Assembly (NCBI GenBank): GCA_964244895.1
Contig: CAXTKV010000137.1
Span: forward strand, 1 to 14,704
DNA: 14,704 nucleotides
Direction of reading: 5' to 3'
DNA from: an uncultured Deinococcales bacterium
GTDB taxonomy: Bacteria > Deinococcota > Deinococci > Deinococcales > JAAFIG01
Positions 5,944 to 13,577 of this stretch are shown here, one piece after another. The notes under the pieces were generated by a model. It had not been told where the DNA came from and made no database searches. It saw nothing but the letters and a program-made list of their open reading frames with translations. Positions within the stretch are counted from its first letter, which is position 1, and each line of letters starts with the position of its first letter. The position numbers were made by a program, and so were the translations under genes.

Positions 5944-6009
5944 CGGGAAAACCGTCCTGGACGCATTTTCTCGAGGTGATCAATTCGCGTGCTGGACGGT
6001 CTTCTCGAG
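5944..6009. repeat. REP-like inverted pair directly after the ABC-F stop
   Basis: CGGGAAAACCGTCCTGGACGC (5944-5964) is complementary at 17/21 positions to GCGTGCTGGACGGTCTTCTCG (5987-6007). Confidence 0.75.
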
Positions 6010-6194: not shown

Positions 6195-7196
6195 GTGACC
6201 CCAAGCGCACTCAGTGAGTACCTCACCCAACTGGTGAGCCACAAGATCAAGATTTCCACCATGCTGTGGGGGCCTCCGGGCGTCGGCAAGTCCAGCATCG
6301 TGGCGCAGACCGCCAGGCAGCACGACCTGGAATTCGTGGACGTGCGCCTCAGCCAGCTCGCGCCGACGGATTTGCGCGGCCTGCCAGTGCCGGAAAACGG
6401 GGTTAGCAAGTGGTTCCCGCCGGAGTTCTTGCCCAAAGGTGGACAGGGAATTCTTTTTCTGGACGAACTGAACATGGCTCCGCCGACCATGCAGGGCATG
6501 GCGCAGCAGTTGATTCTGGATCGCAAGGTCGGGTCTTACACGCTGCCGGAAGGCTGGTTCATCTGGGCAGCGGGCAACCGCAAAGAAGACCGCGCCGCCG
6601 TGTTCGACATGCCCGCGCCGTTGGCGAACCGCTTCTTGCACCTGGAAGTCGAACCCGACCTGGAGAGCTTCAAGGCCTACGCCTTCGCAGCGGGCTTGCA
6701 CGAGCGCATCCTGGCGTTCCTGGCGTTCCGACCGTCCTTGTTGCACGCGGTGGACACCAAGCACCCGGCCTGGCCGAGCCCGAGAAGCTGGGAGATGGCC
6801 AGTACGCTTCTAAAGGCTGGGCTCGAGATTGCGCCCGTGATCGGCGCGGGAACCAGCGCGGAATTCGATGCGTTCGTCAAGGTCTACGAGGTGCTGCCGG
6901 AACTCGAGCCGATTTTGTCGGGTCGGGCGCTGGATCGGGCCTTCCCGGACGAACCGAGCGCGCGTTACGCGATCACGATGGGCTTGACCTTGCGCGCCGA
7001 GGATGCGACGCAAGCCCTGAACGCCTTCCGCTGGCTGGCGGACGTGGCCTCGCCGGAATGGGTGCAGCTTTTCGCCGCCGATCTGTTCGGACGGATGCGC
7101 ACCAAAGGGCAGATGGGCGTGCTGGCGGAACTCGTCGGGCAGGACGCGCGCTTGCAGGAATTCCTGCGCGAGTACCGGCAGCTCGTGGGGCTCTGA
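6195..7196 (+). CDS. MoxR-like AAA+ ATPase (type associated with DUF2201 vWA proteins)
   Basis: Walker A WGPPGVGKS, VDVRLSQLAPTDLRGLP, Walker B ILFLDELN, sensor I AAGN, arginine finger PLANRF and sensor-II-like PSPRSWE. Confidence 0.92.
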   Translation: MTPSALSEYLTQLVSHKIKISTMLWGPPGVGKSSIVAQTARQHDLEFVDVRLSQLAPTDLRGLPVPENGVSKWFPPEFLPKGGQGILFLDELNMAPPTMQGMAQQLILDRKVGSYTLPEGWFIWAAGNRKEDRAAVFDMPAPLANRFLHLEVEPDLESFKAYAFAAGLHERILAFLAFRPSLLHAVDTKHPAWPSPRSWEMASTLLKAGLEIAPVIGAGTSAEFDAFVKVYEVLPELEPILSGRALDRAFPDEPSARYAITMGLTLRAEDATQALNAFRWLADVASPEWVQLFAADLFGRMRTKGQMGVLAELVGQDARLQEFLREYRQLVGL

Positions 7197-7248
7197 GTTG
7201 GTCAGGGATCAGAAGCCCTCGGAAACCGGACGCTCGAGATCGCGTATT

Positions 7249-7316
7249 TCGGGAAGACCGTTCAGGATTGCCTTTTTTGAATTCGCAGGGATGCCGTCCT
7301 GGACGGTGTTCTCGAG
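7249..7316. repeat. REP-like inverted pair between the AAA+ and repeat-protein genes
   Basis: TCGGGAAGACCGTTCAGGATTGC (7249-7271) versus GCCGTCCTGGACGGTGTTCTCGA (7293-7315): 18/23 complementary. The second copy contains the perfect core palindrome CCGTCC-T-GGACGG. Confidence 0.75.
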
Positions 7317-7335
7317 CCCTGTACCCGATCAGACG

Positions 7336-7417
7336 CACCGCGCGTCGAGGGTGCACGCTCACCGCGGATCGAGGATGCACGCTCACCGCGGATCGAGGAT
7401 GCACGCTCACCGCGCGT
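7336..7417 (+). repeat. 24-bp tandem repeat, 3 copies plus a partial copy
   Basis: Unit CACCGCGGATCGAGGATGCACGCT is exact at 7360-7383 and 7384-7407, variant at 7336-7359, and partial from 7408. There are no spacers. Confidence 0.92.
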
Positions 7418-7432
7418 TCAAGCCGAGAGGAG

Positions 7433-7438
7433 TAGCGT
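7433..7438 (+). promoter_or_regulatory. -10 box (TAGCGT) of a probable leaderless transcript of the HEAT/LRV gene
   Basis: TANNNT, 6 nt, then ATG at 7445. A GAGGAG at 7427-7432 could alternatively act as a somewhat distant SD. Confidence 0.5.
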
Positions 7439-7444
7439 AAACCC

Positions 7445-10168
7445 ATGCTCGAGCCGGATCGGAACAATCAGGCATCGCTCGAGGTGCTGCGCGAGGCGAG
7501 CGATCCGCGCACGGCTCAGGATCGGCTGAAACGGCTGGCATCGCACCGCGACGAGCGCGTGCGGCGACTCGTGGTCAGCAACCCGAACGCGCCGACGGAG
7601 GCGCTCTACAGGCTCTGCGTGCGGCACCCGGAAGCGTTCCTGCAAAATCCGGTGCTGGAGCTGTTGATTCTGGAAAACCCGAACCTGCTGGCTGAAATGC
7701 CTGAATACGCGCGCTCGAGCCTGCTGTCGTGCGAGGACGCACCGATGGTTTTCCTGGAGTGGAGCGAGAAGTGGAACGAGGGCGTGCTGGCCGTACTGCA
7801 GAACCCTAACGCGCCGAAAGCCCTGCTGGAACGGCTGGTGGATCACGCCGACGAGCGCGTGGCGCGAGCCGCGAAACTGCACGTCAACGCAGACGCTGAG
7901 TCCGAACGCGATCCACTGGCGGAAGCGATGAACGCCGTGTCGAAGGCCGCGCTCGAGCGCGATGGCGAAACGATCAAGGACTTGTTCGCCCTCGAGGCCG
8001 TGCCCGTCTGGGCGCTCGAGCTGCTGTGCCAGGATTCGGACGCGGAATTGCGCGCGCTGGCCGCAGCGCACCCGGACGCGCCGCCCGCCGTGCTGGAACG
8101 CCTGGCGCTCGACGAGGAAGAACCCGTCCGGCAGCGCGCCGCGGCGCACCGGAACGCTTCCGGCGATTGGAGTGAGCGCTACCGCAAGCTCCAAACGATG
8201 GAGGCGCTCGAACCTGAACGGGTAGAAGGTCTGGCGGGTGCGGGATCGTGGGCGCGCAAACTGGCGGCGCGTCACCCGAACGCGCCATTGGCCTTGATCG
8301 TGGGCTTCGCCAGCGACGAGGACTGGCGCGTGCGCGAGGCGGTCGCGCAGAATCCGCAGTTGCCATTCGACACGCTCGAGGCGCTTTTCAATGACAGCGA
8401 CCGGGATGTGCGGGCGGCGGCGGCATCGCACCCGAGGGCGAGCGTGGCGCAACTCGAGCGGCTGGCAGGGGACACCGACGAACGCGTCCGGCAGGCGATC
8501 GCGGCGCACCCGAACGCGCCTCAAAGACTGATCGAGCATCTCGAGCGCGCCGCCAGCAACGACCCGAGCCTGAACGCCCAGGAACTCGAGGTCGTGCAGC
8601 GTTACGGCGAGTGGGGCCGTCAGATCGCGGCGGCGCACCCGAACGCCGACCGGGGCACCCTCGAGCGCCTGTCGCGCGACGAGATCTGGCGCGTGCGTCA
8701 GGCGGTCGGGCACAACCCTTGCGCCAACCCAGCGATTCTGGAAGGGCTGGCGCAGGATTCGGATTCCGACGTGCGCGGGGCGGTTGCGCAGAACCCGAGT
8801 GCGCCCTTGCACGTCCTCGAGACGCTGTCGCTGGACGCGCACAACGAGGTTCGCAAATCGGTCGCGCACAATCCGAACGCCAGCCCCGCAATCCTCGAGC
8901 GCCTGGGCGCGGACGACCACTGGACGGTGCGGCAAGCCGTCGCGGCGCACGCCAACGCACCGGATCAGACCCTGGTGATGCTGGTGCGCGATGCCGACCG
9001 CGACGTGCGTCAGTCCTTGATCGAACGGCCCGCGTTGCCGGAGGCGGTACTCGAGGCGCTGTTCGCGGGCTGGCTGGAACCGATCGATCTTTCCACGGAC
9101 AAGCTGAACGACCTCTACCGCCGCGCCCTGCGGCTCGATCCCGATTTGCCGGATGCGTTCCTGGCGTCGCTCGCGGTCGGCGAGGAGTGGGCCAGATTGC
9201 TGGCCGCGAGGCACGCGAACACGCCCCAGGGCGCGCTGGAACACCTCTCAAGCGACAACGACTGGCGCGTGCGTCAGGCCGTGGCGCAAAACCAGAACGC
9301 GCCGTGGGCGGTGCTGGCGCGGATGCTAGACGACCACGACGCGGATGTCCGCACCGCCGTGGCCAGCCACGCCAACGTGCCGCAGAGCGCGCTGGAACGG
9401 CTGGCGCACGACGCGCACACGGGCGTCAGAACGGCGGTGCTGGCGCGCGAGGACGCGCCGCAGGCCGCGCTCGAGACGCTGGCGGGCGACGAGGAAGAAG
9501 AAGTCCGCCGCCGGGCGCAAGCCGATCCTCGGGTGCCGCGCGAACTGGTCGAGGGTTACGCGCGGGCTGAAGCTCAGGATACTGGGCTGGAACCCGCCGC
9601 GCTCGAGGCGCTTTCCTTGGGCGGTGCGTGGGCCAGGGGTCTGGCGGCACGGCACCCGAACACGCCGCAGAGCGCGCTGGCGCGGCTGGCGACCGATGAG
9701 CGCTGGGTGGTGCGCCAGGCCGTGGCGGGCAACATCAGCGCTGGAGCAGGGCTGCTCGCCTCGATGGCGGCGGATTCCGATCTGGATGTCAGACGCTCCC
9801 TGGCGGGCCACCCGAACACGCCTCAGGATGCCCTGGAAACGCTGCTGCACGATGCCGAGGACGGCGTGCGCCGCGCCGCGCTGAGCAACCCGAACCTGAG
9901 CGCCGAACTGCGGATCGCGCGTCGGCGGCGCGCCATCGGCGGTTGCGTTCGGGCCAAGGAAAGCCTCAACCGGGTGATCGGATTGTCGCACCCGGACGTG
10001 CCGGAATCCGAACTGATGAAATCTCGGCACCTGGCTTCAGGTGAATGGCTCGAGCGGCTGGCGTTGGCGCTCAATCCAACTTTGCCGCAGACGGGCATCG
10101 AACGCCTTTCGCGCGACGGCAACCGGATCGTGCGGGCGCTCGCCAAATCCAGGCTGGAGAAGCCGTGA
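7445..10168 (+). CDS. HEAT-like / leucine-rich-repeat-variant (LRV) alpha-solenoid protein, 907 aa
   Basis: More than 20 copies of a ~24-aa unit (H/N)PNAP..LE.LA.D....VR.AVA. Distinct N-cap (PEAFLQNPVLELLILENPNLL) and C-cap (WLERLALALNP...DGNRIVRALAK). No catalytic motif, signal peptide or TM segment seen. Confidence 0.88.
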   Translation: MLEPDRNNQASLEVLREASDPRTAQDRLKRLASHRDERVRRLVVSNPNAPTEALYRLCVRHPEAFLQNPVLELLILENPNLLAEMPEYARSSLLSCEDAPMVFLEWSEKWNEGVLAVLQNPNAPKALLERLVDHADERVARAAKLHVNADAESERDPLAEAMNAVSKAALERDGETIKDLFALEAVPVWALELLCQDSDAELRALAAAHPDAPPAVLERLALDEEEPVRQRAAAHRNASGDWSERYRKLQTMEALEPERVEGLAGAGSWARKLAARHPNAPLALIVGFASDEDWRVREAVAQNPQLPFDTLEALFNDSDRDVRAAAASHPRASVAQLERLAGDTDERVRQAIAAHPNAPQRLIEHLERAASNDPSLNAQELEVVQRYGEWGRQIAAAHPNADRGTLERLSRDEIWRVRQAVGHNPCANPAILEGLAQDSDSDVRGAVAQNPSAPLHVLETLSLDAHNEVRKSVAHNPNASPAILERLGADDHWTVRQAVAAHANAPDQTLVMLVRDADRDVRQSLIERPALPEAVLEALFAGWLEPIDLSTDKLNDLYRRALRLDPDLPDAFLASLAVGEEWARLLAARHANTPQGALEHLSSDNDWRVRQAVAQNQNAPWAVLARMLDDHDADVRTAVASHANVPQSALERLAHDAHTGVRTAVLAREDAPQAALETLAGDEEEEVRRRAQADPRVPRELVEGYARAEAQDTGLEPAALEALSLGGAWARGLAARHPNTPQSALARLATDERWVVRQAVAGNISAGAGLLASMAADSDLDVRRSLAGHPNTPQDALETLLHDAEDGVRRAALSNPNLSAELRIARRRRAIGGCVRAKESLNRVIGLSHPDVPESELMKSRHLASGEWLERLALALNPTLPQTGIERLSRDGNRIVRALAKSRLEKP

Positions 10169-11463
10169 GCACCGTCCAGGACGAGAAAAAACTTGTGCGT
10201 CAGGGACAGGACAATGCCACCGCGAACCCGATCCGCATGGAATCGTCCGATCCGCTCGAGGAGCGCCTCGATCCTGAAACACCGACCTCGCCCGAGGTGC
10301 CGCGAGCCGTCCCGAACCTCGAGCGGCAGATCAGCGCGTCCTTGTTGCGCTTGCGGATGCGCTCACCGTTTTTTGCCACGCTGGCCTTATTTGCCAAGTT
10401 CAAGCCGACGCTGGACTTACCGACCGCCGCCACCGACGGGCGCGACGTGCTCTACAACCCCTTTTTCATGGGCAAATTGCCGCAGACGCACTTCGATGCG
10501 GTGGTGCTGCACGAAGTCCTGCACGCCGCCATGCTGCACGTGCCACGGCGCGGACACCGCGACCCGCAAGCCTGGAACATCGCCGCCGACATCGTGGTCA
10601 ACGGCATCCTGATTCAGAACCAGTTCGAGCTTCCCGAGGGCGCAGTCCGCGACGAGAACCTGGAAAAATACAGCGTCGAGGAGGTCTACGCGCTCCTGCC
10701 GCGCCAGGGAGGCCAGCATCACCTCGAGACCCAGGACTTGCTGGAACCCGGCGAAGACCCGAACCCCGACCAATCAGGGGATGCCAAAGGGCGCGACCAG
10801 GACGGCAGCCTCAAACAATCGCGGCGCGCCAAGCTCGAATCGCACTGGCGGCAGGCGGCGCAACAGGCCAGCGTGATCGCGCGCGGCGTCAATCAGGGCA
10901 AGCTTCCGGCGGGCGCGGAGCGGCTGTTGAGCGCGACCTCAGCCGCGCGGCTCGACTGGCGCACGCTGCTGTGGCGCTACCTGACGCGCACGCCGACCGA
11001 TTTCGAGGAATTCGACCGGCGCATGGTCGGACGCGGCCTGTACATCGAATCGCTCGAGGGTCAGAGCTTGCGCGTCTACGCGGCGGTGGATACCTCCGGC
11101 AGCGTCGATGACGCGCAGGTCAAGGATTTCCTGGCCGAGCTGCGCGGTATTTTGCGCGCTTACCCGCACGTGCAATGCGATCTGTATTACGCCGACGCGA
11201 GCGTCTACGGGCCGTACCCGCTGCTGGGCGACGGCGAGATTCCCGCCCCGCAGGGCGGCGGCGGCACGGACTTCAGGCCGTTCTTCGAGGCCGTATCCCA
11301 GCGCCTCGAGGCGCACGTCTCGAGCGTAACGGTCTATCTGACGGACGGCTACGGGGATTTCCCCGACGAAGCGCTCGAGGTTCCGACGCTCTGGGTGGTG
11401 ACGCCCGGTGGCCTGGACGCCGACAGCTTCCCGTTTGGCGAGGTCGTCAAGCTGATCGACTGA
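10165..11463 (+). CDS. Putative metallopeptidase-vWA protein (DUF2201_N + DUF2201/vWA-like)
   Basis: N-domain PFFATL...TAATDG...LHEVLH (HEXXH)...WNIAADIVVN, an acidic linker, LDWRTLL, then a vWA domain with complete MIDAS (VDTSGS, GGGGTDFRP, YLTDGYG). GTG 10165 overlaps the upstream TGA (GTGA) with GGAG at 10156-10159; ATG 10237 is an alternative start. Confidence 0.9.
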   Translation: MSTVQDEKKLVRQGQDNATANPIRMESSDPLEERLDPETPTSPEVPRAVPNLERQISASLLRLRMRSPFFATLALFAKFKPTLDLPTAATDGRDVLYNPFFMGKLPQTHFDAVVLHEVLHAAMLHVPRRGHRDPQAWNIAADIVVNGILIQNQFELPEGAVRDENLEKYSVEEVYALLPRQGGQHHLETQDLLEPGEDPNPDQSGDAKGRDQDGSLKQSRRAKLESHWRQAAQQASVIARGVNQGKLPAGAERLLSATSAARLDWRTLLWRYLTRTPTDFEEFDRRMVGRGLYIESLEGQSLRVYAAVDTSGSVDDAQVKDFLAELRGILRAYPHVQCDLYYADASVYGPYPLLGDGEIPAPQGGGGTDFRPFFEAVSQRLEAHVSSVTVYLTDGYGDFPDEALEVPTLWVVTPGGLDADSFPFGEVVKLID

Positions 11464-11489: not shown

Positions 11490-11533
11490 ACACCGTCCAG
11501 CACGCAAGCTAGAACTCGTGTGCTGGACGGTGT
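11490..11533. terminator. REP-derived hairpin between convergent genes, possible bidirectional terminator or 3' stabiliser
   Basis: ACACCGTCCAGCA (11490-11502) is the exact reverse complement of TGCTGGACGGTGT (11521-11533), extendable to 16 bp with one G-U pair. No U-tract. Confidence 0.6.
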
Positions 11534-11563: not shown

Positions 11564-12088
11564 TCAGGCTCGAGGGCTGGGATACAAGACGGCCTCGATG
11601 GCCGCTTTCTGGGCGGTCTCGAGCGTGCCGCGCACGTCGAAGCTCGGCCAGGGCCGCAGGTTCCGCATACTGCGCGAGGACACCGCGCCGACCGTGATGC
11701 GCCACGCGCCCTGGTTTGGGCCGCGCACCTCCATCGCGTGACCATCGATCTCGGCCTCGATCAGCAGCACGCCATTCGACTCGAAATGCTTTTTCCAGTT
11801 GACGGTTCGGCTCAGCGCGGGCGGCTGCGCGGGCCAACGGCAGGCCGTACCCAGGTTGAAACCGCGCAGGCGCGAATGCATCCGATCCTGGGTCGGGTTG
11901 ATCGGGTCGAGGCGCGGCGTGAACTCGATCCGACCCGACCAGAAATAACGACCCGGAACCCAGCCGGAACGGTCGAAGTACGCTTCCAGGATATCGCCCT
12001 CGCGCAGGGCGCGACCGTCCAGGTAGTACTGGTGCTGATCGTCGTCTTTGCGCAGCGTGATGCGTTGAGCGGTTTCAAAACTTGGCAT
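11564..12088 (-). CDS. Hypothetical protein, 174 aa (N-terminal region reminiscent of DUF5348-like small beta domains)
   Basis: ATG preceded by SD GAGGA at 7 nt spacing. Protein-like composition with aromatic residues (YYLDGRALREGDILEAYFDRSGWVPGRYFWS). Fills the gap between flanking features. The domain resemblance is from memory only. Confidence 0.7.
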   Translation of the reverse strand: MPSFETAQRITLRKDDDQHQYYLDGRALREGDILEAYFDRSGWVPGRYFWSGRIEFTPRLDPINPTQDRMHSRLRGFNLGTACRWPAQPPALSRTVNWKKHFESNGVLLIEAEIDGHAMEVRGPNQGAWRITVGAVSSRSMRNLRPWPSFDVRGTLETAQKAAIEAVLYPSPRA

Positions 12089-13485: not shown

Positions 13486-13577
13486 GAACACCGTTCTCGC
13501 TCATCAGACCGCACCTAGCGGGCTATTCGCGCTCCAGCACGCGTATGTAAGGTTGCGTCCAGGACGGTGTTCCTGAG
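13485..13577. repeat. REP-like inverted pair (first copy truncated)
   Basis: AGAACACCGTTCT (13485-13497) and GCGTCCAGGACGGTGTTCCTGAG (13555-13577). The latter is identical to 4111-4131 over 21 nt. Confidence 0.7.

Follow-up and report, generated by a model that had tools for sequence, protein, structure and literature searches.

What do three co-oriented genes do together that encode a MoxR-like AAA+ ATPase, a giant solenoid of LRV repeats, and a protein joining a putative zincin peptidase domain to a von Willebrand factor A (vWA) domain? They lie on a 14,704-nucleotide stretch of DNA from an uncultured Deinococcales bacterium (GenBank assembly GCA_964244895.1, contig CAXTKV010000137.1); this whole stretch, the window, is one entire contig (C137) of the genome that we designate G000. 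We found that the trio is a real, conserved, and uncharacterised three-part system. The explanation that we prefer, to which we give about an even chance from the sequences, is that it would be an ATP-driven remodelling and proteolysis machine of housekeeping-like character, in which an exchangeable solenoid adaptor aims the ATPase and the peptidase-vWA protein at their clients. A preliminary description of the DNA had reported three co-oriented genes, intact motifs throughout, and a GTGA overlap between the second and third genes, and open reading frame (ORF) and motif checks confirmed all of this; the motifs and the Pfam matches DUF2201_N and DUF2201 likewise bear out its statement that an HEVLH zincin motif and a vWA domain with a full metal ion-dependent adhesion site (MIDAS) share one protein. 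The features are as follows.

6195-7196, + strand: gene of the MoxR-clade AAA+ ATPase (333 aa, GTG start; AAA_5, PHROG 1297)
6270-6293 and 6453-6467, + strand: Walker A and Walker B, within the ATPase gene
7336-7415, no strand: tandem repeat of 24 bp with 3.3 copies, inside the 248-bp spacer that separates the ATPase and LRV genes
7445-10168, + strand: gene of the LRV/HEAT-like alpha-solenoid (907 aa, 26-residue repeats)
7607-7762, + strand: unnamed 52-residue module ("cap"), solenoid residues 55-106, a predicted docking tag
9947-10165, + strand: C-terminal end module, solenoid residues about 835-907, conserved in long solenoids
10165-11463, + strand: gene of a putative zincin peptidase (DUF2201_N) joined to a vWA domain (DUF2201); 432 aa, PHROG 1314
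10510-10524 and 11089-11103, + strand: HExxH and MIDAS DxSxS, within the peptidase-vWA gene

Recurrence is the first argument for a system. In the window's family, 18 of 18 genomes have the peptidase-vWA gene, and 15 of them show the full order ATPase-LRV-vWA; in two more, the LRV gene directly precedes the vWA gene, one of these loci being cut by a contig end and the other having no ATPase in the 1.7 kb available, and in the remaining genome the contig ends inside the vWA gene. Beyond the family, we surveyed the 80 GTDB loci with the best matches to the ATPase, 80 metagenome loci, many of them short, and 80 viral loci. An LRV or module gene lies near the pair of ATPase and peptidase-vWA genes in 55 of the 80 GTDB loci, distributed over seven phyla (Deinococcota, Cyanobacteriota, Chloroflexota, Armatimonadota, Abditibacteriota, Verrucomicrobiota, and Pseudomonadota), and 48 of the 80 metagenome ATPase loci have LRV. 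The proposed triad thus recurs, and AAA/DUF2201 pairs are not rarely beside LRV. The solenoid gene does not keep the position between the ATPase and vWA genes that it has in the window, as gene order is shuffled across phyla: the LRV gene stands before, between, or after the pair and forms arrays of up to 7 paralogues (7 in the cyanobacterial locus L078). No further neighbour recurs across phyla beside the pair in the flank survey of the GTDB loci. The solenoid gene might still stand by chance beside two genes that form a chaperone of their own, as the existence of the pair alone in phages and one Chloroflexota clade and the 248-bp spacer in the window would allow, but the linkage outlasts the shuffling of gene order in seven phyla and the 52-residue module is absent from all 49 ATPase-less genomes of the census described next, and we consider this idea largely refuted and scarcely credible.

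The second argument comes from that module, whose consensus core is FPxxxLxNPxLxLLxLENPN. Its 86 members gave no meaningful Pfam match, with 4 weakly matching ubiquilin-like, and an ESM Atlas search with the module region matched unnamed LRV clusters alone. The module is also borne beside the pair by ankyrin, pentapeptide, WGR-LRV, DUF1963, and unnamed bodies, which vary in fold and in length (about 160 to 1450 aa). In G000 it is confined to the triad solenoid; the genome's own NACHT-LRV protein (L067:3200-5617, minus strand), which combines NACHT with LRV/HEAT repeats and has an NLR-type look, lacks it. We carried out a census of 121 Deinococcota genomes of at least 90% completeness, calling the ATPase at E <= 1e-60, and found it in 72 genomes; the module was present in 69 of the 72 ATPase-positive and 0 of the 49 ATPase-negative genomes, numbers to be read with the knowledge that the module profile was built from loci including some census genomes and that the genomes are related and kin are not independent. 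The three ATPase-positive genomes without the module have the most divergent ATPases (51-59% identity). Within genera the two also agree: both occur in 58 of 63 Deinococcus genomes, and in another genus the module is found in 6 of 13 and the ATPase in 7 of 13. That one module stays constant while the bodies behind it vary, and that it goes with the ATPase, is most simply explained if it serves as a docking tag on exchangeable adaptors. A complex prediction with the peptidase-vWA protein, the ATPase, solenoid residues 1-150, and Mg scored 0.81, compared with 0.70 for the control with the peptidase-vWA protein replaced and 0.00 with the partner replaced, and is evidence neither way.

Module-like sequences are found outside the trio as well. 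A profile of the N-terminal region (LRV repeats included) matched 23,160 cluster representatives, and in many Deinococcus genomes short genes made up of the module and repeats stand at other places, mostly following DUF2239 or adjoining an exonuclease. We surveyed 40 regions, picked from the listed extra matches together with two LRV loci. The short module genes among them (L316-L353) mostly form a unit with DUF2239, often with a gene of about 105 aa without a Pfam match, and frequently adjoin rplL or rpmG; one further locus (L354, G004:C3) has several LRV-family ORFs of about 350 aa within 15 kb and no module match. One protein with a module-region match (P0155, 1492 aa) ends in topoisomerase C-terminal repeats.

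The third argument is that the key residues of both putative enzymes are conserved. In the ATPase, Walker A (residues 26-33), Walker B (87-91), sensor I (N128), the arginine finger (R146), and sensor II (R197) are invariant in 95 of 95 homologues. Of the features of the MoxR clade, these motifs, with the arginine finger before strand 5, and a linked vWA partner with a MIDAS are found; a helix-2 insert may be present, AAA_5 and midasin being the top profile matches. The ATPase matches Pfam AAA_5 (E 2.6e-7) and PHROG 1297 (E 2.5e-83), and midasin is its closest solved sequence (E 9e-12). A second ATPase of G000 lies on another contig (C29, 32372-33601; L066). The peptidase-vWA protein matches, besides DUF2201_N and DUF2201, PHROG 1314 (E 2.9e-74), whose label "HNH endonuclease" we rejected as unfit for this protein. 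Its HEVLH occupies residues 116-120, and its MIDAS consists of D309-x-S311-x-S313, T368, and D394. HExxH is retained in 87 of 97 homologues and H116, H120, H125, and D142 in all 97, which suggests that catalysis by the putative zincin domain is under selection. The vWA fold was confirmed on the predicted model (Z 14.1, root-mean-square deviation 2.2, 134 aligned), which the Rea1-MIDAS and NorD vWA domains match with Z 11-12. For the zincin fold, there are weak profile matches to M48, HtpX, MJ1213, and SprT-like families (E 0.014-1); fold searches with the peptidase-vWA model listed no zincin, the lists being filled by vWA domain matches. G000 has a second peptidase-vWA gene (C85, 15846-16934; L064), with no catalytic glutamate and no adjoining ATPase, and orphan ATPase or peptidase-vWA copies resembling those of G000 also occur in relatives.

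The solenoid itself has no catalytic domain. Pfam LRV matches it with 257 bits, and a custom repeat profile recognised 26 units, 18 of them above 8 bits. Its AlphaFold2 model is essentially all-helical (pLDDT 91), and Foldseek matched this model to the PP2A-A and karyopherin HEAT solenoids; a sequence search of solved structures gave no match for the solenoid and none for the peptidase-vWA protein. By analogy with known MoxR-vWA pairs, the ATPase would form a hexamer, bind the vWA domain, and hydrolyse ATP, the MIDAS would grip an acidic residue of the client, and hydrolysis would pull on that client. The 52-residue module may be what docks the solenoid, with either the ATPase or the peptidase-vWA protein as its site, the repeat surface of the solenoid would bind the client, and the putative zincin domain would cut whatever the motor exposes, such cutting being suggested by the conserved zincin residues.

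Several observations weigh against this machine. The peptidase-vWA gene is present in 70 of the 80 viral ATPase loci, and LRV or the module in 0 of 80; against 50,697 phage records the solenoid had no match, while the peptidase-vWA protein matched 548. A quick search with midpoint rooting gave an ATPase tree of 95 rows, of which 27 lack LRV; 18 of these 27 group together in a single Chloroflexota clade (SH-aLRT 97), and 17 of these 18 have no module match anywhere in the genome; the single module-positive genome has a second, LRV-linked copy. At the other LRV-less GTDB loci the module occurs elsewhere in the genome in 7 of 7 cases, the completeness of these genomes not being given. The solenoid is thus not obligatory, as the ATPase/peptidase-vWA pair stands alone in phages and in one Chloroflexota clade and can dispense with it. 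In addition, because kin are not independent, the co-occurrence of module and ATPase reflects a handful of gains and losses. The module has no invariant glutamate, and we therefore dropped a conserved module glutamate as a MIDAS ligand. The columns that separate LRV-linked from LRV-less proteins are few, 4 in the ATPase and 6 in the vWA protein, so that there is no clear docking patch. As to proteolysis, the putative peptidase fold rests on motif conservation and weak profile matches, and the catalytic glutamate is gone in 10 of 97 peptidases, the second G000 copy among them.

In 14 of the 18 LRV-less Chloroflexota loci the pair is followed by a small gene of opposite orientation, which was never met together with LRV. 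Its product of about 125 aa has no Pfam match (e.g., L118:9695-10084, minus strand, convergent with the peptidase-vWA gene), and the ESM Atlas gave a sub-threshold staphostatin look-alike (0.88); it is possibly an alternative partner or inhibitor. The occurrence of another small conserved gene after the pair would also fit a different role for the solenoid, namely that it is itself the client: the pair would fold, assemble, or trim it as a structural or scaffold protein, much as has been proposed for virion proteins in jumbo phages. Such a role would agree with the stop/start overlap of the solenoid and peptidase-vWA genes and with the assembly of complexes by MoxR-vWA pairs, and assembly with processing was proposed for the phage pair in the available part of Iyer et al. 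(2021; PMC7824862). Nevertheless, bodies of such different fold and length behind one module are hard to reconcile with one structure, and the pairs of phages EK8 and phiFa lie near helicase and rII genes or near RNase H, not by structural genes, with a mixed gene context in phages S-TIM5 and XaC1. We thus regard the solenoid as client as decidedly unlikely and continue with the solenoid as an exchangeable adaptor.

A further question is whether the trio serves defence, as the preliminary description had considered in its anti-phage sensor-effector alternative. In a conflict system, variable solenoids would sense invader proteins and the ATPase-protease would destroy them or trigger arrest, which would make the trio a fifth MoxR-vWA ternary type. 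This reading draws on the diverged paralogue arrays in cyanobacteria, with 7 members in L078, and on the constant module with variable bodies, which recalls the grammar described in the available text of Kaur et al. (2020; PMC7159879). Single loci have Wadjet genes, two methyltransferases, an endonuclease, TIR, or WYL in their neighbourhood. On the Synechocystis plasmid pSYSA, the genes lie between a type I-D CRISPR locus, a DUF262 gene, and toxin-antitoxin pairs; there, slr7023 (L148:16267-18183), which primer mapping identified as the solenoid gene with the module, at a distance of 4 kb from those for the ATPase and the peptidase-vWA protein, can be disrupted in a segregated strain and serves as a neutral integration site (PMC8272380). 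Microarray data exist for sll7029, possibly the ATPase gene of pSYSA.

The remaining evidence goes against defence in this lineage. The ATPase is near-core in Deinococcus, where it occurs in 58 of 63 genomes as a single, syntenic match; it was found in 0 of the 23 genomes of genus g9. In 18 close pairs, which include Calothrix and Ktedonobacter pairs for the solenoid, the ratio of nonsynonymous to synonymous substitution rates (dN/dS) was 0.015-0.13 for the ATPase, 0.04-0.28 for the peptidase-vWA protein, and 0.14-0.29 for the solenoid, which is thus under purifying selection. No toxic effector domain was found in the 36 LRV or module proteins scanned, one of which, an unlinked NACHT protein, is not a partner. 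The PADLOC-DB 2.0 models left the triad proteins unmatched, apart from a weak match to IetA (17 bits) around Walker A. Proximity to defence islands was equally uncommon: in 281 flanking ORFs from 44 loci, taken with a crude filter and no background rate, clear defence genes (Wadjet, the two methyltransferases, and the endonuclease) stood at about four loci, and the rest looked like housekeeping relatives or Uma2-like genes. Finally, lytic phages carry the same pair. We therefore consider the conflict reading quite improbable; the trio is likely kept like a housekeeping gene set and not like a defence system.

Expression data from D. deserti point the same way, if its genes are correctly matched. 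Deide_12060, Deide_12070, and Deide_12080 (an ATPase of 340 aa, a hypothetical protein of 378 aa, and an LRV protein of 467 aa) adjoin DegV and an Fe-S oxidoreductase and were matched to the Deinococcus loci via synteny and size, not sequence; they are likely the triad counterparts. In the available part of the supplement of PMC4007540, the likely ATPase and LRV proteins are in the unstressed proteome, each with its own leaderless start. In the first column of the same data, as far as available, reads of the three genes changed upon irradiation from 47 to 71, 84 to 46, and 92 to 74, with no clear rise, and those of a different MoxR gene, Deide_18710, went from 93 to 618 (PMC4007540). We rejected the radiation-induced MoxR operon Deide_18730-18690 as the triad, as it is a separate locus from the likely counterparts.

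These numbers also bear on a narrower form of our preferred explanation, in which the machine would act at damaged DNA, the solenoid bringing it to breaks or trapped proteins and the zincin and motor clearing them. The analogy is with the eukaryotic Wss1/SPRTN protease, which works with Cdc48/p97, and a weak SprT-like match (E 0.014) agrees with it. WGR is fused ahead of the module in betaproteobacterial triads and was found in 21 of 26 proteins selected for a late-starting match compared with 0 of 9 others. An NAD-dependent DNA ligase, often a fusion with BRCT and WGR, adjoins the triad or lies in its vicinity in 2 of the 80 GTDB loci, from two phyla, and in 5 of the 80 metagenome loci, two of which are apparently the same DNA, though the ligase links fall largely within one clade. 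Short Deinococcus module genes lie beside an RNase_T-family exonuclease at 6 loci and right after ddrB at one (L331). On the other side, neither WGR nor BRCT is found in the solenoid of the window, which is acidic (isoelectric point 5.3), and the available irradiation data show no induction of the likely D. deserti genes (PMC4007540). Searching 34 promoter stretches with a radiation-response motif pattern, for which ddrB as a control gave a near-perfect palindrome, we found no motif upstream of the ATPase; five stretches had loose matches far from the start. We therefore speculate on a DNA-damage role as unlikely, yet worth keeping in view. The ligase genes adjoining the triad (L115:1547-7969, L165:5823-9931, L200:5203-9681, and L155:3619-9891) are mostly fused to BRCT and WGR, and that of L200 also has DUF4246; L115 has a TIR gene upstream, and L165 has a similar gene. 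A BRCT-like start seen by eye on the module protein of L207 was dropped, as it was not confirmed.

Within the window, the arrangement of the genes deserves some detail. GTGA at 10165-10168, where the solenoid stop overlaps the GTG start of the peptidase-vWA gene with GGAG just 5', is there as first described, and the translational coupling that was read from it is something we can only infer, because the peptidase-vWA frame is already open from ATG 10045 and the first approximately 48 residues are unconserved. The 248 bp between the ATPase and LRV genes leave these two uncoupled. A 24-mer of the spacer tandem repeat is unmatched anywhere else in the G000 genome, and the repeat is probably incidental to the triad. 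The flanking genes identified by a Pfam scan (SlpA, RuvC, PrsW, an ABC ATPase, a pyroglutamyl peptidase, and a methyltransferase) are, by these assignments, housekeeping genes, and judged by them the triad of the window is not in a phage or prophage. SlpA and the closest named relatives put the window in Deinococcota. A promoter and terminator scan of the window gave signals at chance level, NCBIfam assigned no family to its proteins, and Rfam had no match; a search of sequencing runs listed no RNA data set. A palindromic repeat resembling repetitive extragenic palindromes (REP-like) occurs at 5944-6007, 11490-11533, and near 13554; one of its arms, a 17-mer, recurs in G000 with 248 exact copies and 1569 near ones, compared with 0-4 for shuffled motifs. 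A 174-aa ORF at 11564-12088 (minus strand), convergent with the triad, has no Pfam, NCBIfam, PHROG, or PADLOC match and none in the flanks of relatives.

If the machine exists as proposed, it would be of interest on several counts. MoxR-vWA pairs are known for remodelling and not for proteolysis, and the present family is a large one, occurring in hundreds of phages. We speculate, as a possibility that we find doubtful but not negligible, that it would be a new class of bacterial energy-dependent proteases unrelated to Clp, Lon, and FtsH, with a MoxR hexamer, a zincin-vWA subunit, and exchangeable adaptors carrying the 52-residue tag, comparable to F-box or UBX adaptors; the WGR and ligase versions would act at DNA breaks, and phages would carry the adaptor-free core. 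The shared tag, which follows the ATPase across genomes, can be used to predict the adaptors of any genome and to set up a binding test of minimal size. Tractable hosts are at hand, because the trio is near-core in Deinococcus, is likely expressed in D. deserti, and has an slr7023-disrupted Synechocystis strain.

Among known systems, RavA-ViaA, CbbQ-CbbO, NorQ-NorD, CoxD-CoxE, and midasin resemble the trio in combining a MoxR-clade motor with a MIDAS adaptor; their clients are known, and to our knowledge none has a vWA-fused peptidase or a solenoid partner. The MolR/YehI-YehLMPQ cassette of E. coli also resembles it, with MoxR, vWA, and a large helical partner that can carry WGR, accompanied by SWIM and DUF5682 proteins. 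The trio differs from this YehL-type cassette in the peptidase domain of its vWA protein, and SWIM and DUF5682 are absent from the window and from the recurrent neighbours. The preliminary description knew of no functional characterisation of the triad. We likewise found no account of an LRV-MoxR-vWA triad in the literature, largely in freely accessible papers that did not include the source data of Kaur et al. (2020), and no paper titled on the function of DUF2201 in the part of that literature available; the two-gene core, though, was already noted in jumbo phages, where a pair of MoxR AAA+ ATPase and metallopeptidase-vWA protein was described without experiments in the available text of Iyer et al. 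(2021; PMC7824862). That pair (PHROG 1297/1314) belongs to the same two families and has its peptidase N-terminal to the vWA domain as in the window, whereas the window type is chromosomal, near-core in Deinococcus, and accompanied by the solenoid. Kaur et al. (2020; PMC7159879) described, in the text available, MoxR-vWA ternary conflict systems of VMAP, iSTAND, FtsH, and beta-propeller types, which share with the trio a MoxR ATPase, a MIDAS-vWA protein, and a third gene, with a constant module on variable bodies. In contrast to these, the third gene here encodes an LRV solenoid (their main text contains "LRV" 0 times), the vWA protein bears a putative zincin domain, the scan revealed no effector domain, and the solenoid lacks hypervariability; unlike the VMAP type, as far as their available text describes it, the ATPase has no N-terminal extension, its Walker A beginning at residue 26. 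What is new here is thus a form of the MoxR-vWA system marked by a vWA protein with a putative peptidase domain and by solenoid partners that carry a tag.

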